Below are positions 139 to 64,000 of a DNA stretch of 64,000 bases, in pieces. Origin of the DNA: Desulfovibrio sp. MES5 (GTDB lineage: Bacteria > Desulfobacterota > Desulfovibrionia > Desulfovibrionales > Desulfovibrionaceae); assembly GCF_002237645.1 (NCBI RefSeq), contig NZ_MJUZ01000016.1:15-64014 (forward strand), given 5' to 3'. The translations under genes and the position numbers were made by a program. Position 1 is the stretch's first letter. Every line of letters begins with the position of its first letter. The notes beneath the pieces were generated by a model. It did not search any database. It was not told the DNA's origin and saw nothing but the letters and a program-made list of their open reading frames with translations.

Positions 139-837
139 TCAGGCAACCTCTTCAGCCAGCCAGCGGCGCATGAAGTTCTGCCCCGCCGTGCGGGCGGCTT
201 CTCCCAGCCGTAGCGCGTCCGCCCGTATGGCGCGGGGATCGTTGCCGGTCTGGGCCAGCTCGCAGCAATGGCCGATAAGCCAGGTATCCATAAGTCTGGC
301 GTCCATTTCCGGGTGAAATTGCAGGGCAAGCTGGCCGCGACCGCAGGAAAAGGCCTGATGCGGCGTCAAAGGCGTTGCGGCCAGCAGTTCGCATCCTGCC
401 GGGACATCAAACGTGTCGCCATGCCAGTGGAGCACAGGGGCATCCACAAGCTCCGCCAGGGGACCGCGCAGCCCCGCTGCGGTCACGTCCACCGTGCCCC
501 AGCCTATTTCTTTTTTTGGCCCGGCATACACCCTTGCGCCAAGAGCTGCGGCCATGATCTGCGCCCCAAGGCAAATGCCCAGCAAGGGCTTGCCCGAGGC
601 CAGCCGCTCCGCCACCATGGCCCTTTCGTCAAGCAGGAAAGGATAGATATCTTCTTCGCCCACGCCGATGGGGCCGCCAAGAACCACTGCAAGGTCAGCA
701 TCCTTCCACAGATCGCTGGTTATGGGGCTCACCCCGGCCTGCACATAGGTCACGGCATAGCCGGCTTCTTTCAAAGGCTGCTCAAAAACGCCCAAATGCT
801 CAAAAGCCACATGCTGTACGGCAACGCAACGTTTCAT
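139..837 (-). CDS. Stand-alone class I glutamine amidotransferase (GATase1, GMP-synthase-N-terminal-like)
   Basis: 232-aa ORF with nucleophile-elbow motif PLLGICLGAQ and C-terminal LQFHPE His/Glu motif. No synthase domain is attached. Confidence 0.8.
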   Translation of the reverse strand: MKRCVAVQHVAFEHLGVFEQPLKEAGYAVTYVQAGVSPITSDLWKDADLAVVLGGPIGVGEEDIYPFLLDERAMVAERLASGKPLLGICLGAQIMAAALGARVYAGPKKEIGWGTVDVTAAGLRGPLAELVDAPVLHWHGDTFDVPAGCELLAATPLTPHQAFSCGRGQLALQFHPEMDARLMDTWLIGHCCELAQTGNDPRAIRADALRLGEAARTAGQNFMRRWLAEEVA

Positions 838-1285
838 ATTTCCCTCACAGGCAGTAAGTTACATCCCCGTTATCCGCAAGAACAGGCCCCGGCGTCAAAC
901 CATTTCTGCTCCGCAAGGTTCGCGCAGCCGCCCTTCCCCAGAAATGATTACCCCCGAGAATATATGTTTGCAAAATAAACCGGAACGGGGGTGGGCACTG
1001 AGGGCCGGTCTGGCGCGCCGTGGCTGGCGCAAAGGGCAGGGCTGCACTGGCGAAGCCCCGGCGCAGCCCGTGCATGACCGCGCGGAAAAGGCTGGCTGAA
1101 CCGCCAGCGCGAATCCGCCCGCCTTTTCGGCTTGGGCCAGGCCGTTCTCGCTCTGGTCGGGCTTCTCCGGCTATGGCGGGATGTCCCGGATGGGGGCGGG
1201 CCTTTTCGGCTTTGGGCGGTCTGTTGCCTATTCGCGCTGCCAGTACCGGTGTACGGTGCTGGCGCAGGCCGGAGCCGCCGGAAAA

Positions 1286-10051: not shown

Positions 10052-10068
10052 TGCATGCGCCATAAAAA

Positions 10069-10104
10069 AGCCTGCTGGCACTTTTGACTGCCAGCAGGCT
10101 TTTT
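10069..10104 (+). terminator. Intrinsic terminator of the GGDEF/EAL gene
   Basis: 12-bp stem AGCCTGCTGGCA / TGCCAGCAGGCT, 8-nt loop, TTTT. An A-run upstream could make it bidirectional. Confidence 0.8.
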
Positions 10105-10221
10105 AAAGCGGACATTTTCACGCACAGGCTCCTGCCTGTTTTAACGCAAAAATTCTATTATAACGGCTCCCCCCTCTCCCGCTTCAGGCCAGAAAATCAG
10201 ACCAGAAAGCACGTTATACTA

Positions 10222-10265
10222 TTTTAGAGAAGGTAAACTTTTACAAAAGTTTACCTGCTCTAAAA
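10222..10265. repeat. 44-bp near-perfect palindrome TTTTAGAG-AA-GGTAAACTTTT-AC-AAAAGTTTACC-TG-CTCTAAAA
   Basis: Read directly. The outer arms share the TTTAGAGCA...TGCTCTAAA hairpin base seen at 36848, 51381 and 55103-55138. Lies 8 nt from palindrome-family copy A1. Confidence 0.85.
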
Positions 10266-10273
10266 TATACCGA

Positions 10274-10344
10274 GAGTTTTAGGGGATGGGGGTGTGGAGG
10301 AGGGACCCTTTTGCAAAAGGGGTCCCTCCTCCACAAAGCATTTC
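10274..10344 (-). repeat. Dispersed GC-palindrome element, copy A1
   Basis: Core GTGGAGGAGGGACCCTTTTGCAAAAGGGGTCCCTCCTCCAC (10294-10334) with conserved flanks AAAGCATTTC and AGTTTTAGGGG. Intergenic. Confidence 0.9.
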
Positions 10345-10357
10345 ATTCGTTAACTGT

Positions 10358-11626
10358 CTAGTCGCCAGAGTCGCCCTTTTCATCGGGGTCGGGTCGCCTG
10401 TCTGTCTTTTCCTGATCCATGCTGTGCAAAATAAGGCTCATGAGCCGCCTGGTCTGCACTTCTCCGTCATATTCCCGCAAGATTGTCTGCTGGGCGCTGG
10501 AGCGCACCTGCTCAAGGGTGGGGGCTTTTTCCAGAGTATCCGAAATCTTTTCCGCCATGGCCTCGGTATCCCAAAAGTCGCATAAAAAGCCGTTGACCCC
10601 GTCACGGATGATTTCCCGCACAGGCGGAGTGTCGGAGCCAACAATCAGCGCGCCGCAGGCCATGCCTTCCAGCAGGCCCGTGGTCAATGCATGGGGAGCG
10701 GCCAGATAGACATGCACGGTGGAGGCCCGCAAAAGTTCACGGTATTCCTTCAGCGGCCGCGCCCCCAGCACATGCACGCGCACGCGCTGCTCCTCCGGCA
10801 GGTTCAGGTTGTCCACGCTGCGCGCGGCCTCTTCTTCCGACCTGCACGCCGGCTTGTCCTCCGCGCATTCCGGGCGCGCGCCCCCCTGTGCATTTTCCAG
10901 CCACGAGAGCAGCACAAGACAATTGGGCCTTTGCTCAAGCAACCGGGGCAAGCAGGCTATGAACTGCTGAAATCCGCGCGCGCTCTCGTGCGGGGGGCCA
11001 AAAAAACTGACAAGCTCGCCGCTGCGCTCTTCCTGGTTTTCGGACGGCGAGAAAAAGCGGGTATTGATGCCGCTGTGCACCACATGCAGCCTGCTGGCCA
11101 GAAAGTCGGGATACTGCGAGCGCTGCCACAGGGATGAGGTCACGGCCAGATCGCACTCGCCCAAGGCGTTGTATTCCCAAAGGTTGGCCACACGCGCCAG
11201 AGCAAAATCAGCAGCCGGGCGCGGTTTGCCACGGGTAAAAAAGCAGTGGCTCTCGCCCTGGGTGTAAAACCAGTCCGCCTGGCCCACATAAAAGGCTTTG
11301 GGGAAAATGTCGCGCACATAAAAGCTGCCGCCCATACTGGCCGACGCACAGATGATGTCGGGCAAAAACCCTTCCTTGCGCAACGCCAACAGGGCATTGC
11401 CAGCCCGCGCGCCGCGCCGCAGCCTCGTGACGATTTCTTTTTCCGCCGGATCATCACTGTCGCAGGAAGACGGGGGGGCCAGCCGCAGACGTCGCACCCC
11501 GGGAATGGAGGTTTTCTGACCGGATTCCGCCAGAAAAAGCACCGTGTTTTCCCGCTGGGTTCCAAATGACTGGGCCAGCGAACGAAACCGACCAGGGAAT
11601 ACAGAGTTCAAAAACAACAGCCGCAT
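10358..11626 (-). CDS. GT-B fold glycosyltransferase (GT4 / glycos_transf_1-like)
   Basis: 422 aa. C-terminal half reads LLEGMACGALIVGSDTPPVREII.DGVNGFL (E-x7-E-type region). Start lies 5 nt after the upstream stop, so probably co-transcribed. Confidence 0.75.
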   Translation of the reverse strand: MRLLFLNSVFPGRFRSLAQSFGTQRENTVLFLAESGQKTSIPGVRRLRLAPPSSCDSDDPAEKEIVTRLRRGARAGNALLALRKEGFLPDIICASASMGGSFYVRDIFPKAFYVGQADWFYTQGESHCFFTRGKPRPAADFALARVANLWEYNALGECDLAVTSSLWQRSQYPDFLASRLHVVHSGINTRFFSPSENQEERSGELVSFFGPPHESARGFQQFIACLPRLLEQRPNCLVLLSWLENAQGGARPECAEDKPACRSEEEAARSVDNLNLPEEQRVRVHVLGARPLKEYRELLRASTVHVYLAAPHALTTGLLEGMACGALIVGSDTPPVREIIRDGVNGFLCDFWDTEAMAEKISDTLEKAPTLEQVRSSAQQTILREYDGEVQTRRLMSLILHSMDQEKTDRRPDPDEKGDSGD

Positions 11627-11631
11627 AGGTA

Positions 11632-13845
11632 CTAACCACTCATCTCAGATTCGCTGTCGCGATCATTTTCCAACAAGTCGAGAAAAGCCTTGCCCTGTTC
11701 GGTTGGCAAAAACTGCCTGAGCGCCTCCACAACCTGCATGTCGTATTTGGGCGGCTGCTCGCCAAGAATTTCCAGGGCCTGCTCCACGCTGTGGGCCTGA
11801 CGGTAAGAACGCGAGCGCACCAGCGCGCAAAACGTATTGGCCACGGCCAGTATCCTGGCATTTTCACAAATGGCGTCGCCACTGAGCTTTTCGGGATACC
11901 CGGAGCCATCCATTCTTTCATACATCTGTGCAATGGCTTCCATAACGGGGAGGCCAAAATCAATGCCTTCAAGGGCATGCTTTGCGTACTCCACATGATT
12001 TTGCAAAAGCGCCCTTTCTTCGGGCGTGAGCATCCCCGATTTGGTGAACAGTTCCTTGGGCAGCTGTATCATGCCTATTTGCGAAAGGTTGGCCGCAGTG
12101 CGCAGGGTTGCCAGCGTCACAGGGTCCGTCTTGCCCAGCCAGTACGCCAGGGTGACCGCCAGTTGGGCAGTGAAGGCCGAATGGCCGCGCAAATAGCTGT
12201 CTACGGTTTCGATGGCGCGCACAAAGGCGTTGACGGTCTGGTTGACCATCCGCTGCGCTTTTTGCTGCGCCATGGCAAGGTCGGTCACGTCGCTGTACAC
12301 GGACACCACGCCTGTCATACGCCCTGCCTCGTCGCGGAAGGGCGTGCAGGAAGTGAAGAAGTAGCGTTGGCTGCCTTCGACTATCAGGGTTTCGGTAAAG
12401 CTGGAGAGACTCCCGGACTGGTGTACGGCCAGCGTATGGGTAACGAGGCTTCGGGCCAGGTCCGGCCCAAGTTCGGTGTGGGGGCGTCCACGCAGGGCAT
12501 TTATATCCTTGCCCGCCATGCGGGCAAAGCTCTGGTTGGCATAGAAAATGACGCCGTTAAGGTCATTGAGCACTATGCCCGACGACAGGGCTGAATTCAC
12601 CCCGTCCATAATCTGCTTCTGCTGGTTGACCACCGTGTACAGCCGCCGCAACTGGTCAGACACGGCGCGCTCCCTGCGACCCACAAGCCACCACCACGAA
12701 GCGGCCATCATGATGCCGACCAGCGCAATGATCAGGGCCGCGCCCATTATGACGTTTTGCCGCAGTGAGCGGTAATCCGCATCAATGCGGACAGCCTCGA
12801 CGCCCTGCTCTACCAGCCAGGGCAAGCGCGGCACGGGCAGCGCCAGGGTGTAGTTGATTTCATCTTCAGTGCCGCCGGGGCCGGGCTCGTTACGCATTTC
12901 CAGAGGCAGGCGGCCGCCTTCCAGCTTCCAGCCGGGCAGATCCACAAAGCCCTCGCGCACCGTGGGATCAATGCGCTGCACCTGCTCGTTAAAATTCTGC
13001 AAAATGGCGGCGCTGTATTCCTTGCCGCCGCTGTGCCGCGTTACCGCCTTGACCACAGGCAGCACGTTGTATGAGGCCAGCAGAACGGAAACGACCTTGT
13101 CGCCCTTTGAGTCCACATAGAGCGGCGCCTTGATGGGAAAGGCCATGTCCATAACGAGTTCGCCGTTTTGACGGCGCACCGGCATGAAGACAGGCTGCCC
13201 GGTCTTGAAGACTTTTCCCAGAAAAGCGCGCTGCGCCTCGTTCACTACGGGCGGCGTGCCCGGCGACATATAGATTTCCAGATCAGAATTGACCAGATAC
13301 GCGGCCCAGAATGAATTTTTATCAATAAAATCCTTAAGTTGCCGAACCATCATGGGCAGGCGCGGGGCAAGGCCGCTCAGGGGGTCGTTGGCAGACATAG
13401 CCACTGCGGCCTTTTCCGCAGGTTCTGCCCCTTCTGCTCCTTCAGCATTTTCCGCAGCTTGCGCGTCTTCCACAGCTTGCGCATCGGAAAAAAGGTCAGC
13501 CGTCGGCAGGCTCTTGCTCTCTTTCTTCGCCTCACGCAACAAGACCTCGGCAGGCAGGCGCGAGCTGTCGACCTCCGCAGCAAAAAGCCGCAGCAGGTCC
13601 AATTCCACAAAAACTTCCACCTGCTCGATGAGCGCCCCTGACCACACCGTCAGCAGGGCCACCTTGTTGTTGGTCTGCACGTGCAGATTCTGCCCCACCT
13701 CCCGCAGCATGCGGGCACGGGAATTTTGCAGGTACCAGTTGGCCCCCATCACGACAACTACCGCCATGACCGCGAAGAACGCCAGCATAATGACTGCCGC
13801 TGTGCGGTTGCGCGATTTTTTGTTCGAGGAATCCTGTTGTGCCAT
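11632..13845 (-). CDS. Membrane sensor: TM, large periplasmic (Cache-like) domain, TM, PAS, degenerate HD-GYP domain
   Basis: AGGA SD before ATG 13845 (MAQQDSS). PAS-like segment around FYANQSFARMAG. The C-terminus aligns to the HD-GYP pattern but reads NLSQIGM where LHDIGK is expected and MYE where HHE is expected, while DGSGYP is retained. Confidence 0.85.
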   Translation of the reverse strand: MAQQDSSNKKSRNRTAAVIMLAFFAVMAVVVVMGANWYLQNSRARMLREVGQNLHVQTNNKVALLTVWSGALIEQVEVFVELDLLRLFAAEVDSSRLPAEVLLREAKKESKSLPTADLFSDAQAVEDAQAAENAEGAEGAEPAEKAAVAMSANDPLSGLAPRLPMMVRQLKDFIDKNSFWAAYLVNSDLEIYMSPGTPPVVNEAQRAFLGKVFKTGQPVFMPVRRQNGELVMDMAFPIKAPLYVDSKGDKVVSVLLASYNVLPVVKAVTRHSGGKEYSAAILQNFNEQVQRIDPTVREGFVDLPGWKLEGGRLPLEMRNEPGPGGTEDEINYTLALPVPRLPWLVEQGVEAVRIDADYRSLRQNVIMGAALIIALVGIMMAASWWWLVGRRERAVSDQLRRLYTVVNQQKQIMDGVNSALSSGIVLNDLNGVIFYANQSFARMAGKDINALRGRPHTELGPDLARSLVTHTLAVHQSGSLSSFTETLIVEGSQRYFFTSCTPFRDEAGRMTGVVSVYSDVTDLAMAQQKAQRMVNQTVNAFVRAIETVDSYLRGHSAFTAQLAVTLAYWLGKTDPVTLATLRTAANLSQIGMIQLPKELFTKSGMLTPEERALLQNHVEYAKHALEGIDFGLPVMEAIAQMYERMDGSGYPEKLSGDAICENARILAVANTFCALVRSRSYRQAHSVEQALEILGEQPPKYDMQVVEALRQFLPTEQGKAFLDLLENDRDSESEMSG

Positions 13846-13867
13846 ATGTCGTTCCTTTCGCGGCGGA

Positions 13868-15877
13868 TCAGCGTTCACGCAGGGCGTTCTGCTTGGCCTT
13901 GAGAATGGGCTTGAGCAAATAATCCAGAACGGTTTTTTTGCCGATGAGGATGTCCGTCGTTACGATCATGCCGGGGATGATTGGCAGAAGTTCCTTGTGA
14001 TAGGTAATGGCATTCTTCTGGGTGCGAACCTTGACCAGATAGAAGTGCTCGCTCTTCTTGTCTTCAATGGTGTCGGCGCTTATGGATTCAAGCTTGCCCT
14101 CAAGGCCGCCGTAAATGGAAAAGTCATAGGCAGAAATCTTGACCATGACTTCCTGGCCGGGGCGCAGAAAGGCCACGTCCTGCGGCTTGACCTTGGCTTC
14201 CACCAGCAGGGTGTCGTCCAGGGGCACAATGTCCATGATGGGTTCGCCGGGCTTTACCACGCCGCCCACAGTGGAAATGTATATCTGCTTCACGGTGCCG
14301 CGAACGGGCGTGCGAAGCTCTGTCCGGGTGACGCGGTCGCGCCCGGCCGAAAGACTTTCGCGCAGGGAGTTCAGCTCCTGCCGTCTCTTGTTTATTTCGT
14401 CCGTAATGGCCGATGCCTGTTCCGCACGGCGTGAGGCTATGCGCTGCCGTGATTCTTCCGCCGCGGACTGCGCCTTGGGGATGGTCGCCGCCAGGGCGTC
14501 GATCTGGCCCTGAAGCTCCACAACCCTTTGCTGCATGCCAAGATATTCGAGCTTGGAAAAGTTGTTGCGCTGCACAAGGGCATAGGCCGTGTCGCGCTGC
14601 TCAATGGACAGGGCAAGGCTGCGGTCCAGCTGCACCTTGCGCGCGGTCTGTTCTTCCACGTCATGCATGCGCTGCGTGTACTGCGATTCCAGCACCTCGA
14701 TTTCGGCATTGAGCTGCACACGCCGCACCTGATAGGCGTTTTCCTGATCCTGAATGATCTGGCGGGCGCGGATCAGTGTATTTTCATCCACCTTGCGGCC
14801 AATAAGCTTGCTGGCCCAGGCTTCAAGATGTTCGGGAAACACTGGGGGCTCGCCCTTGATTTCGGCCTCAAGCCGTATGATGGCGAGGCTGTTTTCCATA
14901 GCCTTGGTCACGGCGTCCCGGTACGCGCTCTCGGCCATTTCATTGTCCAGCTGGGCAAGAATGGCGCCCTTGTCCACAATCTGCCCTTCATGAACCAGAA
15001 CCGCGCGCAGGATGCCGCCTTCAAGGTTCTGGATGGTCTGGGTGCGCTGCGAGCCCACAACCGTGCCTTCGGCATGGGTGACTTCATCCACGCTTGCAAA
15101 GGCCGCCCAGATAAGCAGACACAAAAACATGACGGCAACGCTTATGGAAAGCGCCCGTACCCCGAAGCGCGGACGCCGCGCCAAAGCCGCATCCACCTCG
15201 CTGGCAAACTGGATGTCATCGGGCGTCAGACCATTGAGCGGCGCGTCCATGGCCGCAAAAAGCCCCGGATTGGACTGGGGTTGACCGGGCTGTTTCGGTG
15301 CGCCGCCGCCGCGCAGCCTCTCCATAGTTTCCGCCATGGATTGACGCAGGCTTTTGTCAGGCTTCTGGGCATGTTCGCCGCCCAGCAGCAGCTCGCGCAA
15401 AAAGGCCTTGGGGCCGCTCTCATCCGCCGTTCCTTCCTGCTGCTCCTCGGGGCCAAGCGGCTGCATCCCGGTTTCAGCGAGGCCATCAGCGGACGCCATA
15501 GGGGCAAAGTCCCCCTTGGGTATCCCCTCTTCACCCCAGGAGGAGCCGAGGACCGCTGGCGCGAATCCGCCCATGGAGGCGTCGCCCTCAGACTCCACCC
15601 CTGGCATGGCCGGAATGGAGCCGTCTTCAGTGGACGCTCCCGGCGCGATAAAAGGAGCGCCCTGCCCGGGCAGGGGCGACAGAAATTCACAGCTTGTTTC
15701 TTGCCCGAAAAATGCGCTGAAGTCCGGCTGCAACGCGCCAGGGGCAGGGGCTGCTGCGGGAGAGGCCTGGGCCGGCGCTTTTGCCCGACCGTCGCCAGTT
15801 ACAGTGCCGCCCGCTTGCGGTTGTCCCGCAGGAGCGGACATGTTTTCCGCATTGGTGTTTTGTGGTGTCTGCTGCAT
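13868..15877 (-). CDS. HlyD-family type I secretion membrane-fusion (adaptor) protein with ~255-aa low-complexity N-terminal extension
   Basis: Single TM (ALSISVAVMFLCLLIWAAF), long coiled-coil region and C-terminal beta/lipoyl-like part typical of HlyD/LapC. ATG 15877 lies immediately after the ABC gene's stop codon (15879-15881); in-frame upstream ATGs at 15886 and 15922 would overlap it. Confidence 0.85.
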   Translation of the reverse strand: MQQTPQNTNAENMSAPAGQPQAGGTVTGDGRAKAPAQASPAAAPAPGALQPDFSAFFGQETSCEFLSPLPGQGAPFIAPGASTEDGSIPAMPGVESEGDASMGGFAPAVLGSSWGEEGIPKGDFAPMASADGLAETGMQPLGPEEQQEGTADESGPKAFLRELLLGGEHAQKPDKSLRQSMAETMERLRGGGAPKQPGQPQSNPGLFAAMDAPLNGLTPDDIQFASEVDAALARRPRFGVRALSISVAVMFLCLLIWAAFASVDEVTHAEGTVVGSQRTQTIQNLEGGILRAVLVHEGQIVDKGAILAQLDNEMAESAYRDAVTKAMENSLAIIRLEAEIKGEPPVFPEHLEAWASKLIGRKVDENTLIRARQIIQDQENAYQVRRVQLNAEIEVLESQYTQRMHDVEEQTARKVQLDRSLALSIEQRDTAYALVQRNNFSKLEYLGMQQRVVELQGQIDALAATIPKAQSAAEESRQRIASRRAEQASAITDEINKRRQELNSLRESLSAGRDRVTRTELRTPVRGTVKQIYISTVGGVVKPGEPIMDIVPLDDTLLVEAKVKPQDVAFLRPGQEVMVKISAYDFSIYGGLEGKLESISADTIEDKKSEHFYLVKVRTQKNAITYHKELLPIIPGMIVTTDILIGKKTVLDYLLKPILKAKQNALRER

Positions 15878-15878
15878 A

Positions 15879-18800
15879 TTACGCATTCCCCGCTGCCGCG
15901 CGCGCCCCAGCGCCGTGTTCATGTCTTGCCGCCGCAACGCTTTGCTTTGAACGGTCGCGCAGGCTCTGCAACACGGCATCACGCGGCCCATCCATCTTGA
16001 TCTGGCCGTTTTCCATAACTATCAGCCGTTCCACAATCCTGAGCATGGACAAGCGGTGCGTCACAAGCACCACCGTGCGGTCCTGCATGACCGAGAACAG
16101 ACGCTTTTGCAGCATGAGTTCAGAATCCGTATCCATATTACTGGTTGGTTCATCCAGAAGCAGCACTTCAGGGTCACGCACCAGGGCCCGGGCCAGAGCC
16201 ACGGCCTGACGCTGACCGCCGGAAAGCGCCTTGCCCTGCTCGCCCACCTGTGCGGCGAAGCCCGCGGGGTTGTTGCGCAGAAAGTCCGTCACGCCAGCCA
16301 GGGCCGCTGCCCGCAAAATCAGGTGGTCGTTAATGGTAGGATCGCCCAGAGCGATGTTGTCGCGAATACTGCCGTAAAACAGCACCACGTCCTGCGGCAG
16401 AACCCCTATGCGGCCTCGCAGGTCGGTGCTGGGGATCTGGCGAATGTCCACATCACCGAACTTCACGGCCCCTTCCTTGGGCTGGTAAAGGCCAATGAGC
16501 AGTTTTGACAATGTGCTTTTTCCCGACCCCATGGGGCCGATGATGCCAACGCGCTCGCCCGGCTCAATGCGCAGGGAAACGCGGTCAAGAGCCAGCCTTT
16601 CCTGATGCGGATAGGCGAAAGACACGTTTTCCATAGTGAAGGAAGGCCGCAACATGCCAAAATCCATGCAGGTCTTTTCAACCTGGTTTTCGGACGGCAG
16701 CAGCATGAGCATGTCCAGAGCCTTGAGCGTCACGTGCGAATTTTGCAGCCGCGTGAGCAACGAGGCCATCTGCAGCAGGGGGGCCATGGTGCGGCCCACC
16801 AGAATATTGCAGCCTATGAGCGCGCCCATGGTCATGAGCCCTTCAGAGATGCGGTAGACGCCCCACACGATCATGGCCACTGTCACCAGCTGGGTGATGA
16901 GCATGGATACCGTGACCGCCAGGTTGTTATACTTGCGCGCTTCACTGTTGGACTGGGCCGAAAGGCCCACCACGGATTCCCAGAGTTTCTGCATACGGCT
17001 TTCGGCCATGCAGGACTTGAGGGTTTCAAGCCCACCCACAATTTCCACCAGCAGGGCGTTTTTCTGCATGTTCTGCTTGTAGCTGGCCTCGGCGCTGCGC
17101 CGCGAACGCTGCTGCAGCAGCAGGCCCAGCCCCAGCATAAGCGGCATGGCCGCCAGGGGCAGAAAGACCACCGGGCCGCCAATAAAGCCGGTAAGCAGCA
17201 GAAAGATCACCAGGAAGGGCAGGTCAATGCAGGCCAGCAAACTCGACGAACTGAAAAATTCTCGCAACTGCTCAAATTCACGAAGGTTATTCACCAAAGC
17301 CCCAGTGGATTCCGGCTTGGCGTCCATACGCATTGAAAGCACTTTTTCCACCAGCGAACTGGAAAGCACGATATCCGCATTGCGCCCGGCCACATCCACA
17401 AAGTGCGTTCGTAATGAGGACAGCAGAAAATTGAACATGTAGATGATGATGATGCCGATGGCCAGAACCCACAGGGTTTCAATGGCGTTATTGGGCACCA
17501 CGCGGTCATACACGTTCATGACGAACAGCGGACTGCCCACGGCGATCAGGTTGATGACCACGCTGGCCAGGGCAACATGGCGGTAAATGGGGGCATAATA
17601 GCGCAGCACGTCCCAGAACCAGCGCTTGCCGTGCGCAATGCTCAGCCGTTCGGCCCGGTCGTCGGGCGCGGCCTCCACTGCGGCGAAAAGGGCATACCCC
17701 GAGTAATCCTGCTTGAGGTCTTCAAGCTGGACAGTCTGGGCGGCTTCGCTGGTTTCGGGAAAAACAACTTCTGCCTTGCCGTCACGAATGTAGGTTACAA
17801 CGCAAGAGCGGTCGTGCGTCAGAAGAAGGATGCAGGGCAAAACCAGGCTGGGAATTTCATCAAGTTCGGGGCGAAAAACAATGCGCCCTGAAAGCCCCGC
17901 CTTGCGCGCCGCCCGCAGGCAGGCCTGGGGCGTCACCTTGTTGCCGGTGAGGCCCGACATGAGAAACTGCGGGCTCACAACCTTGCCGCGCAAACGCAGC
18001 AGAACCGCAAGGCTGCGCAACAGACCCGGCATAAAATCCACGTCCGAAGGGCGCAGGGGCCCCATGGTACGTTCCTTGTCCCCCTGCCCGCCGCCCATGG
18101 CGGCTTCCTGGCGCGCGGCATGGGCTATGGCGTCCATAGCGGCCTTGCCGACCTGACTGGAGGCACCGGGCGCGCCTTCTTCTCTCTGTTGTCCACCAGT
18201 ATCTGTAGCTTCGCCAGCCTCGCCTGCGGCGGGATCGCCTTCTCTTGCGCCAGCCCCGGCCTCCGGCGTCGGAGCGTCAGCGCTGTCAGCGCCTGCTGCG
18301 GAAGGCTGCACGCCCTGGAGCGCCTGTGATGCCCGCGATTGCGGCATCTGCGATTGCGGCTGCTGCGATTGCGGCTGCTGCGGCATTGTGGCCGACTGCT
18401 CCGGCTGCTGCGATATATGGGACTGCTCTAACGGGTGTGATTGCTGCGGCATCTGCGGCATCTGCGGCATTTGCGGCATCTGCGGCATTTGCGGCTGCTC
18501 CGGCTGTGATTGCTCTGACGCCTGGGGCTGCTGCGTCTGTACTTGCTGCGACGCCTGCTGCTCCATATTGGCAGCCTCTTTGTGGTCTGCCCCGGGTGAT
18601 GCCTTGTGCCTGTCATTGCCGAGCACGATTCGGCCTCCGGGCTTCAACGACATGGCGCCGTGCAAGGCAGTGCTTTTTGCCGCGCCGCCTTCTTCGGGCG
18701 TATGCTGCTGGTTTGGCGGCGGCGCTCCAGGCTTCGTCGCGGCAGCATGCTCACGGGGGTGCAGCACAGCGGCCCGGCTGACGGCCTGATTGCCACGGGG

Positions 18801-18980
18801 CGCGGTTGCGCCCGCAGACACCGGGGATTCAGCATCAGGCCGCGCGGCCGGATTGCTCTGTAAATTTATAGAGGAAGCTTTTCCAGAGGGCGCCTCGTGA
18901 TTTGCGGCAGCGCCTTTGTCGACAGCTGTTGTCTCATCACGGGTATTTTCTGAACGATCTGTTATATTGGAATTTTCCAT
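15879..18980 (-). CDS. Type I secretion ABC exporter with N-terminal C39-like domain (LapB/LssB type), preceded by ~315 aa of low-complexity sequence
   Basis: Walker A GPMGSGKST, signature LSGGQRQ, Walker B LLLDEPTS, six-TM exporter domain, C39-like block LRSLAVLLRLRG..LPCILLL. The true start is uncertain; internal Met candidates include 18065. Confidence 0.85.
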   Translation of the reverse strand: MENSNITDRSENTRDETTAVDKGAAANHEAPSGKASSINLQSNPAARPDAESPVSAGATAPRGNQAVSRAAVLHPREHAAATKPGAPPPNQQHTPEEGGAAKSTALHGAMSLKPGGRIVLGNDRHKASPGADHKEAANMEQQASQQVQTQQPQASEQSQPEQPQMPQMPQMPQMPQMPQQSHPLEQSHISQQPEQSATMPQQPQSQQPQSQMPQSRASQALQGVQPSAAGADSADAPTPEAGAGAREGDPAAGEAGEATDTGGQQREEGAPGASSQVGKAAMDAIAHAARQEAAMGGGQGDKERTMGPLRPSDVDFMPGLLRSLAVLLRLRGKVVSPQFLMSGLTGNKVTPQACLRAARKAGLSGRIVFRPELDEIPSLVLPCILLLTHDRSCVVTYIRDGKAEVVFPETSEAAQTVQLEDLKQDYSGYALFAAVEAAPDDRAERLSIAHGKRWFWDVLRYYAPIYRHVALASVVINLIAVGSPLFVMNVYDRVVPNNAIETLWVLAIGIIIIYMFNFLLSSLRTHFVDVAGRNADIVLSSSLVEKVLSMRMDAKPESTGALVNNLREFEQLREFFSSSSLLACIDLPFLVIFLLLTGFIGGPVVFLPLAAMPLMLGLGLLLQQRSRRSAEASYKQNMQKNALLVEIVGGLETLKSCMAESRMQKLWESVVGLSAQSNSEARKYNNLAVTVSMLITQLVTVAMIVWGVYRISEGLMTMGALIGCNILVGRTMAPLLQMASLLTRLQNSHVTLKALDMLMLLPSENQVEKTCMDFGMLRPSFTMENVSFAYPHQERLALDRVSLRIEPGERVGIIGPMGSGKSTLSKLLIGLYQPKEGAVKFGDVDIRQIPSTDLRGRIGVLPQDVVLFYGSIRDNIALGDPTINDHLILRAAALAGVTDFLRNNPAGFAAQVGEQGKALSGGQRQAVALARALVRDPEVLLLDEPTSNMDTDSELMLQKRLFSVMQDRTVVLVTHRLSMLRIVERLIVMENGQIKMDGPRDAVLQSLRDRSKQSVAAARHEHGAGARAAAGNA
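18447..18494 (-). repeat. 9-bp in-frame tandem repeat (about 5.3 units) encoding (PQM)n
   Basis: Plus-strand CTGCGGCAT/CTGCGGCAT/TTGCGGCAT and so on. Translated as PQMPQMPQMPQMPQMPQ inside the ABC-exporter N-terminal extension. Confidence 0.9.
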
Positions 18981-19243
18981 GGCATTCCCATTGCTGTAGC
19001 GTCGGGGCAGAAACCCCTTGCAGATAGGCGGGAGCGTACGTCGGCAACAGGATCACTTGCGGGACTTGTGGCCGCATCGCATGATGTAAGGCGATCTTCC
19101 GCCATATGAAAAATACTATACTGATGCAGGATTGCCAAGCGTTTTGGCTACCCGAATCGGCGGAGGAGACGTGTGGGAAAACGCATGCGCTGAAAGATTG
19201 GTGTTATGCCCCGGCGCATCTCTGCGCCGGGGCATAACACCTC

Positions 19244-20644
19244 TTACTCGAACCAGCCGGGAGCGAATTCTTCGCGGGGATCCGCTGCATCCTTGGGCGG
19301 GGTCTGCCCAAGGGGTGCGGTATTGATGGACATCTGCGGCAGCAGATTGCCCGAAAGGGCACTCAAACGATACGCGCCCACCAGGATGTTGCCGCGAGCG
19401 GTTTCAGCTTGGGTCGAAGAGTTGAAAAGCTCATTCTCTGTATCAAGCACGTCCAGAATACTGCGCTTGCCGATCTGGAACTGCTCAATATAGGCTGAAC
19501 GTGTGTACTTGCTGTACTCCACGGCCTTGGTATAGTGCGAGAACTGCTCCTGCGCGGCCTGATAGTTGGTCCAGGTGCTCTCGATATCCAGCTTGAGCTC
19601 GTCGATGAAGTCGTACATCACCTGACGGCTCTGACGGATACGCGCCGAGGCGGCACGGCGTTCAGCCAGGTCGGCCCCGCTGTTGAAAATATTCCAACGC
19701 ACAACGCCCATCACGTCAAAGCTGTATATCCAGCGGTCACTTGCGCCGCCACGGTCCGTATAGTTGGGGCCGGCTTCAAGATTCAGCGTGGGGTAAAATG
19801 CCGAATCAGCCAGTTCACGCTCGCCGCGTGCTGCACGGATATCCTGCATGTAAGCGGCAATTTTGGGGTTACTCTGCTCGGCCTGCGCGAACACGGCGTC
19901 AGGCCCCTGATACAGTTCAGGAGGCATGGTCACGGGAGCCAGCTTGCCGGTCGCCGGCAGGCCGGTAAGGCGTGTGTAGCGCTCTTCGGCCACCAGCAGG
20001 GCGGCCTTGGCTTCAGAAAGGCTCGACAGCGCACGCTGGAGGCGTGAACGGGCTTGCGTCACGTCTGCGGCGGTATCAGCGCCAAGGTTGGCTCTTTCCT
20101 GCGCTTGGCTGACCAGGGCCTTGTGTTGCGTGACGTTCGATTCGGCCAGCGCCAGAATCTTTCTGCGCCGCAGCACATCAATATGCGAGATGATTCCCTC
20201 AAGCGACATGGAAGTGGCGGTGTCAAACACCCTGAACTTCACAGACTCAAGGGTCGATTTGGCTGTACGCACGCGCGACCTGGTGGCAAAGCCATCCCAT
20301 ATGGGCTGCACAAGCTGAGCGCTGACGCCAGCCAGGCCCCACATCTGGGTGTCCAGGTCTCTACCGCGGGTTGATGAGTCGCTCAGGACGCTGCCGCCAG
20401 CCCGGCCGGTAACGTCGACGCGTGGGCCAAAGCCGGCTTTGGCGCGGTCGGCCTCATGTTCAAGTACATTACGGTTTTCCTGCATGCCACGCAGGGCGCG
20501 GTTTGACCGCAATACTCCGTAAACAGAGTCTTCCACAGTAATGACCTGCCCCGCTGGCGGCGGCGGATAGGCGGATTCTGCAGCCGAGGCCACAGCGGGC
20601 AGCAGCAGGCCAAAAGACAAAAGGTATGCAACAAGTTGTTTCAC
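19244..20644 (-). CDS. TolC-family outer-membrane channel (T1SS OMP)
   Basis: 466 aa with signal peptide MKQLVAYLLSFGLLLPAVASA and two OEP-type repeats rich in coiled-coil Ala/Gln/Arg. First gene of the T1SS cluster. Confidence 0.9.
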   Translation of the reverse strand: MKQLVAYLLSFGLLLPAVASAAESAYPPPPAGQVITVEDSVYGVLRSNRALRGMQENRNVLEHEADRAKAGFGPRVDVTGRAGGSVLSDSSTRGRDLDTQMWGLAGVSAQLVQPIWDGFATRSRVRTAKSTLESVKFRVFDTATSMSLEGIISHIDVLRRRKILALAESNVTQHKALVSQAQERANLGADTAADVTQARSRLQRALSSLSEAKAALLVAEERYTRLTGLPATGKLAPVTMPPELYQGPDAVFAQAEQSNPKIAAYMQDIRAARGERELADSAFYPTLNLEAGPNYTDRGGASDRWIYSFDVMGVVRWNIFNSGADLAERRAASARIRQSRQVMYDFIDELKLDIESTWTNYQAAQEQFSHYTKAVEYSKYTRSAYIEQFQIGKRSILDVLDTENELFNSSTQAETARGNILVGAYRLSALSGNLLPQMSINTAPLGQTPPKDAADPREEFAPGWFE

Positions 20645-27174: not shown

Positions 27175-27304
27175 CTAGGGGAACCGTGCGGACGAGAGTT
27201 GCACGGCTGAGAGTGGGAAAACCCAGACCCTATGAACCTGACGCAGTTCGCACTGCCGGAGGGAAGCCGCAGCCACAAGCTCTACCGCTGCTTGTGGTTT
27301 TTTT
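27175..27304 (+). promoter_or_regulatory. TPP (THI-box) riboswitch with intrinsic-terminator expression platform
   Basis: Aptamer CTAGGGGA..CGGCTGAGAGTGGG..ACCCTATGAACCTGA..GGGAAG matches the conserved CUGAGA / ACCCUUUGAACCUGA cores. Followed by hairpin CCACAAGC / GCTTGTGG (27273-27297) plus TTTTTTT. Lies 30 nt upstream of thiC. Confidence 0.88.
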
Positions 27305-27334
27305 GCGCCCTGCGTCGCAACCCGCGAGGCACAC

Positions 27335-28615
27335 ATGTCTACCACACTTTGTTCCCAGAACGCCGCTCTGCGCGGTCTTCTGGACACGCACCTTGCCACC
27401 CTGGCCGCCGAAGAGGGGCTGACGCCCGAAGCAATCATCGCCGCCCTTGAAGCCGGAACCATGGTTCTGCTTGGCAATCCCGCCCATGTCGGACTCAAGC
27501 CCATTCTCGTGGGCCAGCCTGCCAGGGTCAAGGTCAACGCCAACATCGGCACGTCCCCCCTGAACAACTGCCCCAACACAGAAGAACGCAAAATTCACGC
27601 CGCGCTGGACGCGGGCGCGGACACGGTCATGGATCTTTCCATCGCCGGGGATCTGGACGCCCTGCGCCAGGGCATGCTGGCCGCCTGCCCCCGTCCTCTG
27701 GGCACAGTGCCGCTCTACGCCGTGGGCCAGCAGATACTCGACGCCGACCGCGAGATCACCAGCATGCGGCCCGACGACCTTTTTGATGAAATAGCCAAGC
27801 AGGCCGCGCAGGGCGTGGATTTTGTCACCGTGCACTGCGGCCTTTCCCGCCGTGGCGCCGAGATGGCCGTCAAGAACAACCGGGTTCTGGGCATAGTCTC
27901 GCGCGGCGGCTCCATGCTGGCGCGCTGGATGCTTGAAAACGGCCGCGAAAATCCCCTGCTGGAATACTTTGACCGCCTGCTGGACATCTGCCGCCCCTAC
28001 AATGTCACCCTGTCCCTGGGGGACGGCCTGCGCCCCGGCGCTGGCGTGGATGCCGGCGACGCCGCGCAGTGGGAAGAAGTCATCAATCTTGGCCGTCTTG
28101 CCAAGTACGCGCTTGAGCGCGGCGTACAGTGCATGATCGAAGGCCCCGGCCATGTGCCGCTCAATCAGGTGCGTACCCAGATCCAGGGCATCAAGCGCCT
28201 GACCAACAATGCGCCCCTCTACGTGCTTGGCCCCCTGTGCTGCGACAGCGCGCCCGGCTACGACCATATAGCCGGAGCCATCGGCGGCGCTCTTGGCGTG
28301 GAAGCCGGTGTGGATTTTCTCTGCTACCTCACCCCCGCCGAACACCTCACCCTGCCTGACGAAGCCGACGTGCGCGCGGGCGTCATGGCCTCGCGGGTGG
28401 CGGCCCAGGTGGGCGAAACGGCGCTGGGCCGTCCCCATGCCGTAGCGCGCGAGGCTGCCATGAACGCAGCCCGCAAGGCTCTTGACTGGGACGGCATGTC
28501 CAAGGCCGCGCTTGACCCCAAGATGCTCGAAAAACGCCGCGAGGCCCACAAGTCTGAAGAAGTGTGCGCCATGTGCGGCAAATTCTGCGCGGTCAAGATG
28601 CTGCGCGACCATTAA
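27335..28615 (+). CDS. thiC: Phosphomethylpyrimidine synthase ThiC (short anaerobe-type)
   Basis: 426 aa. Motifs NANIGTS, MIEGPGHVPL, CDSAPGYDHI, LCYLTPAEHL and C-terminal CAMCGKFCAVK (radical-SAM-type cluster motif). Confidence 0.95.
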   Translation: MSTTLCSQNAALRGLLDTHLATLAAEEGLTPEAIIAALEAGTMVLLGNPAHVGLKPILVGQPARVKVNANIGTSPLNNCPNTEERKIHAALDAGADTVMDLSIAGDLDALRQGMLAACPRPLGTVPLYAVGQQILDADREITSMRPDDLFDEIAKQAAQGVDFVTVHCGLSRRGAEMAVKNNRVLGIVSRGGSMLARWMLENGRENPLLEYFDRLLDICRPYNVTLSLGDGLRPGAGVDAGDAAQWEEVINLGRLAKYALERGVQCMIEGPGHVPLNQVRTQIQGIKRLTNNAPLYVLGPLCCDSAPGYDHIAGAIGGALGVEAGVDFLCYLTPAEHLTLPDEADVRAGVMASRVAAQVGETALGRPHAVAREAAMNAARKALDWDGMSKAALDPKMLEKRREAHKSEEVCAMCGKFCAVKMLRDH

Positions 28616-29225
28616 AAACAGCAGCTTGCCTTTGACCACAGGCAACTTCAAGGCCACACGCAAAGGCTGGCCGTGAAGACCAAGATCGAAGGCAGGGCGT
28701 GAAGAGCAAACACGAAAGCCAGATTCAAAAGCCAGGCTTGAAGGCGGACTTGAAGGCAAGGGAAGCCAGTTACAGCCTTTGATCATGCAAATTCCCGGCG
28801 ACGCCGTCTCCACCGCAGTTCTGGCGGTAACGGCTGAAACCGGGCTGGCGCTTTCACCACAGGCGGCTGCTCCGGCAGCCGCCTGAGCGTTGCAACGTGA
28901 CCACACGCCGGATGTGCTGCCCTATCCGGTATAAAAGCGCCGGAACGTCAGGCGGCACAGGTCTGCCCGGCCCGGCGCTGTTGCGGTTCTTGCGCCATAC
29001 GGCCCTGCAGCCCCATACAGCCGGGCAAGGACAGTGTAGATCAGGAACACTTCCGGGCCGGACACCGCAGCGCTGGCGTTCCACGCCGCCGCTCGGGGCA
29101 GGCAGGCTTCCCCCTGAGCGCTTCTTGACTCCGAAGGGTCCTGCATATATGCCTCATCCTTGCCCGCCCTTTGGCGCGGGTCCACCATTCCCTCTGCCCG
29201 GCGTAACCCGGTATGCGGAAGCAAT

Positions 29226-52218: not shown

Positions 52219-52281
52219 GAAATGCTTTGTGGGGGAGGGACCCTTCTGCAAAAGGGTCCCTCCCCCACACCCCCTTCCCCT
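52219..52281 (+). repeat. Dispersed GC-palindrome element, copy A4 (tail interrupted by B1)
   Basis: Head GAAATGCTTT, core GTGGGGGAGGGACCCTTCTGCAAAAGGGTCCCTCCCCCAC (52229-52268), tail ACCCCCTTCCCCTG. The expected CCTAAAAC tail end reappears at 52425-52432, straddling the right end of B1. Confidence 0.9.
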
Positions 52282-55144: not shown

Positions 55145-55217
55145 AAAAGTTTTAGGGGGTCGGGGCGTGGGGGAGGCGACCCTTTTGCAAAAGGGTCCCT
55201 CCCCCACAAAGCATTCC
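55145..55217 (-). repeat. Dispersed GC-palindrome element, copy A5
   Basis: Tail AAAAGTTTTAGGGGGTCGGGGC, core GTGGGGGAGGCGACCCTTTTGCAAAAGGGTCCCTCCCCCAC (55167-55207), head AAAGCATTCC. Confidence 0.9.
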
Positions 55218-63151: not shown

Positions 63152-63216
63152 ATATTTTTGAGCAATAGTTGACGCAGGAAAAAGCAAACCCTCACCAGGC
63201 ATTTTTTGGGGCTGGC

Positions 63217-64000
63217 ATGAACAAAGTTTTGGCGCAAGATGAAGTGGATGCCCTGCTTCGCGGGCTTTCCGGCGGCGAAATTGAGAGCGAAGTTGAGGTT
63301 CCGGAAGACGATTCCGGCATTGTGGCCTTTGACCTTGCCAATCAGGACCGCATCATACGCGGGCGCATGCCCGTGCTTGAAATCGTCAATGACCGTTTCG
63401 CCCGGCTTTGCACCAACGCCCTTTCCAACTCCGTGCGCAAGCGCGTTGAACTGAATCCCATATCCATTGATATGACCAAGTTCGGCGAGTTCATGCGCTC
63501 TTTGCCCGTGCCCACGTCCATCAACATCTTCAAGATGGATCCCCTGCGCGGCAATGCCATCATGGTGGTGGACTCCCGTCTGGTCTTTGCCCTGGTGGAA
63601 AGCGTCTTTGGCGGCGCTGGCTCCCAACCCAAGGTGGAGGGTCGCGAATTCACCCGTATCGAGCAGGCCGTGGTGGACAAGATCGTCAAGATCGCCCTGG
63701 AAAATATGGAAGAATCCTGGCGGCCCGTACACGACGTGAAGCTGGAACTGGTGCGCAGTGAAATCAATCCGCAGTTCGCCGCCATTGTTCCGCCCAGCGA
63801 CGTTGTTGTCGTCATCACCTTTGAGGTCGAGCTTGATACGGCCCTGGGCTCCATGATCATTTGCCTGCCCTATGCCACCATCGAGCCTATCCGCTCCAAG
63901 CTGCACGCCAGCTTTCAGACGGAACGCCTTGAAGTGGACCACGCCTGGGTGGCGCGCCTCAAGGAGCGCCTGCTGGAAACCCCCATTGAACTCAAGGTGC
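63217..64000 (+). CDS. fliM: Flagellar motor switch protein FliM (5' part; runs off the window)
   Basis: Not in the ORF track because no stop falls in the window. My translation from ATG 63217 reads MNKVLAQDEVDALLRGLSGG...AFDLANQDRIIRGRMPVLEIVNDRFAR...LVFALVESVFGGAG, a classic FliM N-terminus (CheY-P binding LSQDEIDALL-like motif). Confidence 0.85.
   Translation, partial: MNKVLAQDEVDALLRGLSGGEIESEVEVPEDDSGIVAFDLANQDRIIRGRMPVLEIVNDRFARLCTNALSNSVRKRVELNPISIDMTKFGEFMRSLPVPTSINIFKMDPLRGNAIMVVDSRLVFALVESVFGGAGSQPKVEGREFTRIEQAVVDKIVKIALENMEESWRPVHDVKLELVRSEINPQFAAIVPPSDVVVVITFEVELDTALGSMIICLPYATIEPIRSKLHASFQTERLEVDHAWVARLKERLLETPIELKV

Follow-up and report, generated by a model that had tools for sequence, protein, structure and literature searches.

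A predicted Dvh-type secretion locus of Desulfovibrio sp. MES5 with a paralogous DvhD-family receptor gene and a linked glycosyltransferase gene

A 64-kb stretch of the genome of Desulfovibrio sp. MES5 (the window, to which open reading frame (ORF) coordinates and profile searches were confined) contains a unit of five minus-strand genes read in one direction, which encode a TolC-family outer-membrane protein, an ABC exporter, an HlyD-family adaptor, a membrane-bound sensor and a glycosyltransferase (GT) (Table 1). The original prediction, made from the DNA letters without database searches, described these five ORFs as a type I secretion system (T1SS) followed by a sensor and a GT; all five lie at the positions first given, and their families are backed by Pfam and NCBIfam profiles. 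The sensor is almost certainly a member of the DvhD family, homologous over its full length (dCache, PAS, and HD-GYP domains) to the receptor of cyclic di-GMP (c-di-GMP) known from D. vulgaris Hildenborough, and dvhE-dvhB-dvhC-dvhD(-like)-GT is a confident annotation of the locus.

The TolC protein carries a signal peptide and scored 239 bits against TIGR01844 (cut-off 225) in the NCBIfam profile search. Its position beside the ABC gene is kept in the related loci L001, L081-84, L086, and L088, which are described below. The exporter had been read as having a non-catalytic C39-like N-terminal domain of the LapB/LssB type, and this agrees with a full-length match to TIGR03375 (type_I_sec_LssB) of 892 bits (curated cut-off 693), in which amino acids (aa) 320-1009 align with model positions 3-694. 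As it starts at position 3 of the model, the match covers the C39-like domain. Peptidase_C39 was not called on this protein by Pfam, the absence of the catalytic cysteine being judged by eye only. Because aa 1-~310 ahead of the domain (window 18051-18980) form a low-complexity stretch rich in Q and P, the true start codon is uncertain; relatives can be aligned only from aa ~216-306 onward, and their gene calls are 707-1007 aa long. This extension includes 9-nt tandem repeats (18443-18504) coding for PQM repeats. The HlyD protein has one transmembrane (TM) segment (aa ~237-267), preceded by a cytoplasmic low-complexity N-terminus of ~236 aa (15068-15877), and the long cytoplasmic N-terminal extensions predicted for both ABC and HlyD abound in Q, P, A, and G.

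The genes are closely spaced. The ATG of HlyD (15877) was predicted to follow immediately on the stop codon of the ABC gene (TAA, 15881-15879), and 1 nt lies between them. The intervals of 22 nt between HlyD and sensor, with the Shine-Dalgarno sequence AAAGGAA, and of 5 nt between the sensor stop and the GT start were likewise borne out. The gap between the TolC and ABC genes is 263 nt, assuming the long ABC ORF. A scan for promoters and terminators gave counts not above those of shuffled controls and so has no bearing on operon structure, and no c-di-GMP riboswitch was found near the operon in an Rfam scan. The unit is closed, as expected, by a GT-B glycosyltransferase, recognized through PF12000 and PF00534; it contains no TM segment and found only generic GT4 matches in NCBIfam and the PDB.

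Table 1. Coordinates (window positions) of the secretion unit and of the features at its 3' end.
Feature	Position	Strand	Evidence
TolC-family outer-membrane T1SS component, DvhE/LapE equivalent	19244-20644	-	PF02321 OEP E=8e-49
LssB/LapB-type T1SS ABC permease/ATPase, DvhB equivalent	15879-18980	-	1033 aa; ABC_membrane + ABC_tran
HlyD-family periplasmic adaptor, DvhC/LapC equivalent	13868-15877	-	TIGR01843 375 bits
DvhD-family predicted c-di-GMP receptor, clade DvhD_a	11632-13845	-	PAS_4; HD_5 E=1.8e-47
Soluble GT4 (GT-B) glycosyltransferase, PF12000 type	10358-11626	-	PF12000 Glyco_trans_4_3 E=9.5e-40 + PF00534 Glycos_transf_1
Unit end: three inverted repeats	10065-10335	.	Inverted-repeat search
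SBP_bac_3 x2 (periplasmic) / degenerate GGDEF / EAL protein	7094 (or 7166)-10051	+	Pfam

The sensor had been described as a protein with two TM segments, a large periplasmic domain, a PAS domain and an HD-GYP-like C-terminus, and this architecture was recovered. Two TM segments (aa ~13-40 and ~360-390) bound ~320 periplasmic residues folded as a dCache domain, and are followed by PAS, a stalk helix (aa 521-548) and a degenerate HD-GYP domain. The stalk was located in an AlphaFold2 (AF2) model built from a 20-sequence alignment, with a mean predicted local distance difference test score (pLDDT) of 80.7. In a PDB sequence search the best three matches of the sensor were 9rc0 (aa 404-726, E=2.7e-69), 9rbz (E=1.5e-54) and 9rc2, the DvhD periplasmic domain, which matched aa 153-347 (E=1.9e-16). 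These three entries are titled ‘HD domain/sensory box protein’, and all are crystal structures of DvhD. A Foldseek search with the AF2 model also returned DvhD structures as its top six hits, with target TM-scores of 0.80-0.85 (9rc2 0.83, 9rc0 0.80). Identity to D. vulgaris Hildenborough DvhD (DVU1020) is 33% over the full length.

The Dvh system of D. (Nitratidesulfovibrio) vulgaris Hildenborough consists of the adhesin DvhA, the T1SS DvhE/B/C, the protease DvhG and the receptor DvhD (DVU1012-DVU1020). De Leon et al. (2017; PMC5646257) found that DVU1020 is syntenic with lapD, yet encodes a PAS/HD protein. DvhD was later reported to restrain the LapG-like protease DvhG depending on c-di-GMP, in a P. 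fluorescens delta-lapG delta-lapD chassis, and its cytoplasmic fragment binds c-di-GMP with a dissociation constant (Kd) of 322 nM (Karbelkar et al., 2024, PNAS; PMC10990149). In the DvhD structures HD has become SQ and HH has become MN, and no hydrolysis occurred with any metal tested (Font et al., 2026, Nat Commun; PMC13090378). In the same work, c-di-GMP splays the stalk helices of DvhD, inside-out control of DvhG is proposed, and in an AlphaFold 3 model DvhG docks to the dCache domain at helix alpha1' (PMC13090378). The supposition that T1SS control of such a kind was undescribed is thus contradicted by work that flagged the arrangement in D. vulgaris in 2017 (PMC5646257), showed the restraint of DvhG by DvhD in 2024 and in 2026 (PMC13090378) added crystal structures, all three of which the sensor matches.

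The loss of metal ligands that had been noticed in the HD-GYP domain is evident at each motif: HD is changed to SQ (‘AANLSQIGM’), HHE to MYE and AVAD to AVAN, with GYP retained. These degenerate residues are kept in 20 homologues down to 30% identity, indicating that the loss of catalysis is ancient. The published DvhD residues were mapped onto the sensor through an alignment. The DvhD and DvhG sequences of D. vulgaris Hildenborough were taken from machine-read text of a supplementary PDF, in which DvhD lacks one residue relative to the published numbering; this was corrected by a uniform offset that fits all 11 check residues. The canonical c-di-GMP site of DvhD comprises Y523, L577, K582, Y621, M646, R650, Y652, and E668, and a bridging site K520, P567, and R569 (PMC13090378). 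In the sensor, Y523, L577, Y621 (of GYP), R650, and Y652 are identical, K582 is conservatively replaced by R and M646 by L, and E668 is replaced by Q, the sole non-conservative canonical change, at a place where the alignment is uncertain. GYP, R650, and Y652 are invariant through the DvhD family. At the bridging site P567 is kept, K520 is V and R569 is E. As most canonical contacts are preserved, and by analogy with DvhD, the sensor is very probably a non-catalytic c-di-GMP receptor.

The periplasmic domain carries a further family signature. The motif (D/E)xxRLFAAE forms a helix at aa 83-95 of the sensor model, just past the point where the long helix alpha1 is broken, and is on this ground identified as alpha1'. 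It holds four of the ten invariant periplasmic positions of the family and is retained in DvhG-linked and DvhG-less clades alike. Just after alpha1' the dCache domain contains an acidic, alanine-rich loop insertion (…DAQAVEDAQAAENAEGAEGAEPAEKAAVAM…, aa 111-152, window 13390-13515). The loop adjoins the helix proposed to dock DvhG, is predicted to be disordered (pLDDT <50) and varies in length across the clade, being 12 aa longer in the MES5 sensor than in a relative of 91% identity.

The partners of such a receptor were not encountered nearby. The earlier claim that the window has no cargo gene, LapG or LapD agrees with the profile searches: no giant ORF is present in the 64 kb, the largest having 1033 aa, and a six-frame profile search of the window for BTLCP/Peptidase_C93 (PF06035) gave no hit, the best E-value being 2.2. 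LapD_MoxY_N was found neither in the sensor nor in the ~36 ORFs scanned (a set that leaves out some smaller ORFs at 38-56 kb and the open-ended ORF at 63169-64000), and the same set contained no adhesin domain. The retention modules or N-termini of DvhA and DVU1545 had no match in the window. Neither an adjacent dvhG nor an adhesin in cis was therefore found in the window. Beyond it, no DvhG of a gut Desulfovibrio appeared among the best 120 matches, either with the alignment of locus-encoded C93 proteins or with the DvhG core of D. vulgaris Hildenborough as query; proteins of Alphaproteobacteria or Pseudodesulfovibrio took up both of these lists.

The Dvh system and the MES5 locus share TolC, a LapB-type ABC exporter and HlyD, with a receptor gene downstream of HlyD. 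The two receptors have in common two TM segments, dCache, PAS and a dead HD-GYP domain, the alpha1' motif, most canonical contacts, and the identical substitutions SQ for HD and N for the AVAD aspartate. The MES5 sensor differs in that the HH pair is MY and not MN, in its identity of only ~33%, in its placement in a separate paralogue clade, in the changes at K520, R569, and E668, and in the extra disordered acidic dCache loop. At the level of the locus, dvhG is missing between HlyD and receptor, no adhesin gene is nearby, and a GT4 gene follows the receptor.

More distant parallels exist. In the LapD/LapG/LapEBC/LapA system of Pseudomonas fluorescens, and in those of Bordetella, Vibrio, Legionella, and Shewanella, an LssB/LapB-type T1SS for a retained adhesin is likewise combined with an inner-membrane receptor that uses a dead c-di-GMP-metabolising domain for inside-out signalling. 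However, the MES5 sensor is not homologous to LapD, lacks LapD_MoxY_N, HAMP, GGDEF and EAL domains as well as the tryptophan-hook mechanism of LapD, and has no LapG in cis. The Legionella LssB/LssD T1SS, from which TIGR03375 takes its name, belongs to the same ABC subfamily as the MES5 exporter, but its RtxA adhesin is controlled by a canonical LapD/LapG pair. HD-GYP folds without catalytic residues, presumably regulatory as in the sensor, are also found in P. aeruginosa PA2572 (YN-GYP) and in Bdellovibrio Bd1817 (3tm8), the latter being among the PDB matches of the sensor. Both are soluble proteins with neither the dCache/PAS membrane architecture nor a T1SS link; PA2572 is of the response-regulator type, and Bd1817 lacks the GYP tyrosine that is invariant in the sensor family.

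About 106 full-length homologues of the sensor were found, and the named ones with at least 39% identity all come from Desulfovibrio. D. desulfuricans IC1 has an orthologue of 58% identity (WP_136399063). The cluster names include D. desulfuricans, D. fairfieldensis, Desulfovibrio sp., and Alphaproteobacteria, and no accession is shared between these clusters and the 2026 supplement of Font et al. Loci L001-L003 were drawn from a contig scan, and the conserved peptide ER[LMI]DG[SK]GYP also occurs in generic HD-GYP proteins. In a neighbour-joining tree the clade of the MES5 sensor is monophyletic and apart from all DvhG-adjacent DvhDs, and it is named DvhD_a here. Nine distinct loci with 39-100% identity belong to it: the window (together with the identical L094-96), L081/82, L083/84 (D. 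desulfuricans cluster), L085, L086, L088, L001, L093, and the first copy of L091/92. In every one whose contig extends upstream, HlyD is followed directly by DvhD_a with no protease between; the L091/92 contig begins 148 nt before the receptor gene, so that the upstream gene lies outside it.

A different arrangement is seen in more distant loci of 23-33% identity, namely L087 and L090 (Kiloniellaceae/Pelagibius-like), L089 (Alphaproteobacteria) and L003. Here, as in D. vulgaris, a Peptidase_C93 gene with LapG catalytic motifs stands immediately upstream of DvhD. In two of them a gene for a trypsin-like serine protease directly follows DvhD (L087:12222-13133, L090:6760-7773), and beyond it come a small ORF, a PF12000 GT and more GT and sulfotransferase genes. 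This suggests that a second protease and a glycan-modification cluster are attached to adhesin systems in these bacteria.

Both arrangements meet on one contig. L091:149-6476 (Logan ERR14657311_28851) carries the tandem DvhD_a - PF12000 GT - DvhG - DvhD_b, in which DvhG is 54% identical to the DvhG core of D. vulgaris Hildenborough, and DvhD_b, the second receptor copy, is 32% identical to the MES5 sensor and 35% to the DvhD_a of L091. DvhG-DvhD_b pairs alone, with no T1SS genes close by, occur in L097:1639-4705 and L099:4987-9292, where they are flanked by flagellar (FlgK/FlgJ-like) genes and by Liv transporter genes. In these two loci the C93 domain is at the C-terminal end of a longer ORF, of 321 aa in L097; the 734-aa frame of L099 resembles a frameshift artefact. 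The supplement of Font et al. lists two DvhD homologues each, and one DvhG per species, in D. legallii, D. fairfieldensis, and D. intestinalis (PMC13090378), and the adjacency of the accessions ties DvhG to just one of the two DvhD clades. A mention of paralogues was not found in the main text (PMC13090378), and the published data sets contain the paralogue variant without discussing it. From the tandem of L091, the detached pairs and the supplementary lists taken together, the source genome probably carries DvhG elsewhere, likely next to DvhD_b, from where it would act in trans. In Desulfovibrio of the human and animal gut the receptor appears to have been duplicated, one copy standing with the secretion genes and a GT, the other with the protease.

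The GT is less constant than the receptor. Orthologues with 48-78% identity stand directly after DvhD_a in L081-84, L088, and L091-93, and a PF12000 GT follows DvhD_a in 6 of the 9 distinct loci; it is absent from L001 and from L085, which has a CheV-like gene at that position. In the alphaproteobacterial L087 and L090, a homologue of 27% identity is found two genes after DvhD, within the GT/sulfotransferase clusters. To the question of whether sensor and GT always follow the T1SS genes in relatives, the DvhD_a loci answer yes for the sensor, wherever the contig reaches upstream, and no for the GT. The GT4 gene is a frequent, non-universal accessory gene of such loci, and its product may possibly act on the cargo adhesin or on a matrix polymer.

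Taken as a whole, the region is best explained, with moderate confidence, as a Lap-like locus of the Dvh type, through which a Desulfovibrio of the gut or rumen type would secrete and retain an adhesin. Following the published work on DvhD, the sensor would bind c-di-GMP without hydrolysing it, binding would splay the stalk helices between PAS and HD-GYP, and the change in the stalk would cross the membrane to the dCache domain as inside-out signalling. In the least certain step, the dCache output would then restrain a BTLCP protease, DvhG, encoded elsewhere and probably beside DvhD_b. While c-di-GMP is high, an RTX-type adhesin that the MES5 T1SS would export, its gene likewise lying elsewhere, would remain anchored in the TolC channel; once c-di-GMP is low, the protease would cut it loose. 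That DvhD_a controls a trans-encoded DvhG is suggested by the conservation of alpha1', the helix proposed to dock DvhG, and by the DvhG-DvhD gene order of the linked loci; it has slightly less than an even chance of being correct.

Three points weigh against this explanation. The 64-kb window has no DvhG, no adhesin and no second DvhD. In every DvhD_a locus examined, the receptor gene goes with HlyD rather than with a protease gene, which equally fits a protease-independent role. Furthermore, the polar residues of the bridging site (K520, R569) and the guanine-specifying E668 are changed, and the stoichiometry, affinity or ligand preference of the sensor may differ from those of DvhD; the polar contacts at the bridging site were described as minimal in DvhD itself (PMC13090378).

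The strongest alternative is that DvhD_a has become sub-functionalised and no longer works through DvhG, coupling c-di-GMP straight to the ABC/HlyD proteins, in a gating of secretion, or to the GT. The invariable position of DvhD_a behind HlyD wherever the upstream region is visible, the PF12000 GT that comes next in two thirds of the loci, and the monophyly of the clade apart from DvhG-adjacent DvhDs would all agree with this, as would the second DvhD beside DvhG in L091, by which the protease already has a dedicated receptor, and the long cytoplasmic low-complexity N-termini of ABC and HlyD, which could be interaction platforms. On the other hand, alpha1' is near invariant in the DvhD_a clade despite divergence in the remainder of the periplasmic domain, dCache lies in the periplasm but the GT and the nucleotide-binding domains in the cytoplasm, and the GT is missing from L085 and L001. 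We also know of no T1SS gated by an HD-GYP-type receptor in such a manner, and this alternative is considered less likely than the main explanation. The proposal of the original prediction, that an HD-GYP-derived receptor in the place of LapD gates the T1SS or its cargo, is upheld for the receptor, a DvhD homologue with a dead HD-GYP domain. It is not upheld for the gating of the T1SS, the published mechanism being inside-out control of an adhesin-releasing protease.

Less probable still is a sensor that works mainly outside-in, its dCache and/or PAS domain binding a small ligand and its dead HD-GYP domain serving as a dimerisation or interaction scaffold with no nucleotide role. The dCache fold is a typical extracytoplasmic ligand sensor, the work on DvhD leaves room for a ligand (PMC13090378), and the residues changed in the MES5 sensor (E668 and the bridging site) could be read in the same sense. 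However, most canonical c-di-GMP contacts are identical or conservatively replaced, GYP, R650, and Y652 do not vary in the family, and the homologue DvhD binds c-di-GMP at sub-micromolar Kd, which makes a nucleotide-free role improbable. That the sensor is an active HD-GYP phosphodiesterase lowering c-di-GMP or cyclic GMP-AMP (cGAMP) near the T1SS is highly improbable and was rejected: the HD_5 match is strong (E=1.8e-47) and GYP intact, but the metal ligands are replaced by SQ, MY, and N, changes that the family as a whole has kept, and DvhD, with the same SQ and N and with MN for MY, showed no hydrolysis with any metal tested (PMC13090378).

The c-di-GMP-dependent retention of an adhesin through a trans-encoded DvhG thus stays the preferred explanation. 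The type of system is already known, with genetics, binding data and crystal structures. What sets the MES5 locus apart is the paralogous receptor clade next to T1SS genes, with no protease or cargo gene in cis and with a linked GT. One could tentatively extend this to two DvhD paralogues with divided labour, DvhD_b standing with DvhG and DvhD_a locked to the T1SS and the PF12000 GT, with a second c-di-GMP-dependent output that publications have not addressed, although such a division is rated as rather doubtful. Through this second output a different signal, periplasmic or from PAS, could be brought to bear on the same protease, or, more radically, c-di-GMP could directly control how the adhesin is secreted or glycosylated.

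The 3' end of the unit was predicted to be marked by a repeat cluster and a convergent terminator, and three inverted repeats were indeed detected there. The first (10065-10104) has a 16-bp stem flanked by T-runs at either end and resembles a bidirectional terminator hairpin. The second (10220-10267) is an AT-rich palindrome with 23-nt arms, unique in the window, and the third (10293-10335) a GC-rich palindrome with 20-nt arms (GTGGRGGAGGGACCC…GGGTCCCTCCYCCAC). The element GTGGAGGAGGGACCC of this third palindrome was found again at 52229-52268 and 55189-55207. With at least three intergenic occurrences, against ~0.01 expected by chance, it looks like a dispersed element of the repetitive extragenic palindromic (REP) kind.

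The gene convergent to the unit was correctly read as encoding a protein with a degenerate GGDEF and an intact EAL domain: GGDEF reads ‘SADMY’, and the motifs EAL, DDFGSGYSSL, and EGVET are all present. It is a probable c-di-GMP phosphodiesterase and may be a sink that drains c-di-GMP locally; synteny of the gene does not extend beyond the closest relatives (L081-84, L094-96). As a substitute for LapD it was rejected, owing to the intact EAL domain, the SBP_bac_3 sensors and a score of 94 bits against the NCBIfam LapD model NF045673, whose cut-off is 1020. Elsewhere in the window, the Rfam family STnc490 (RF01405) was found at positions 1-98 of the minus strand (88 bits, gathering score 56), cut by the window edge. 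Two ORFs, 27230-28906 (minus strand, 558 aa) and 268-978 (plus strand, 236 aa), belong to no Pfam family at E<=0.001.

Gut sulfate reducers have been linked to inflammation. To our knowledge, the glycosylation of T1SS adhesins has hardly been studied, and the recurrent PF12000 GT of these loci would point to its possible occurrence. If the two receptor copies differ in cue or output, they would show an elaboration of c-di-GMP-dependent adhesin control in the sulfate reducers of the gut.

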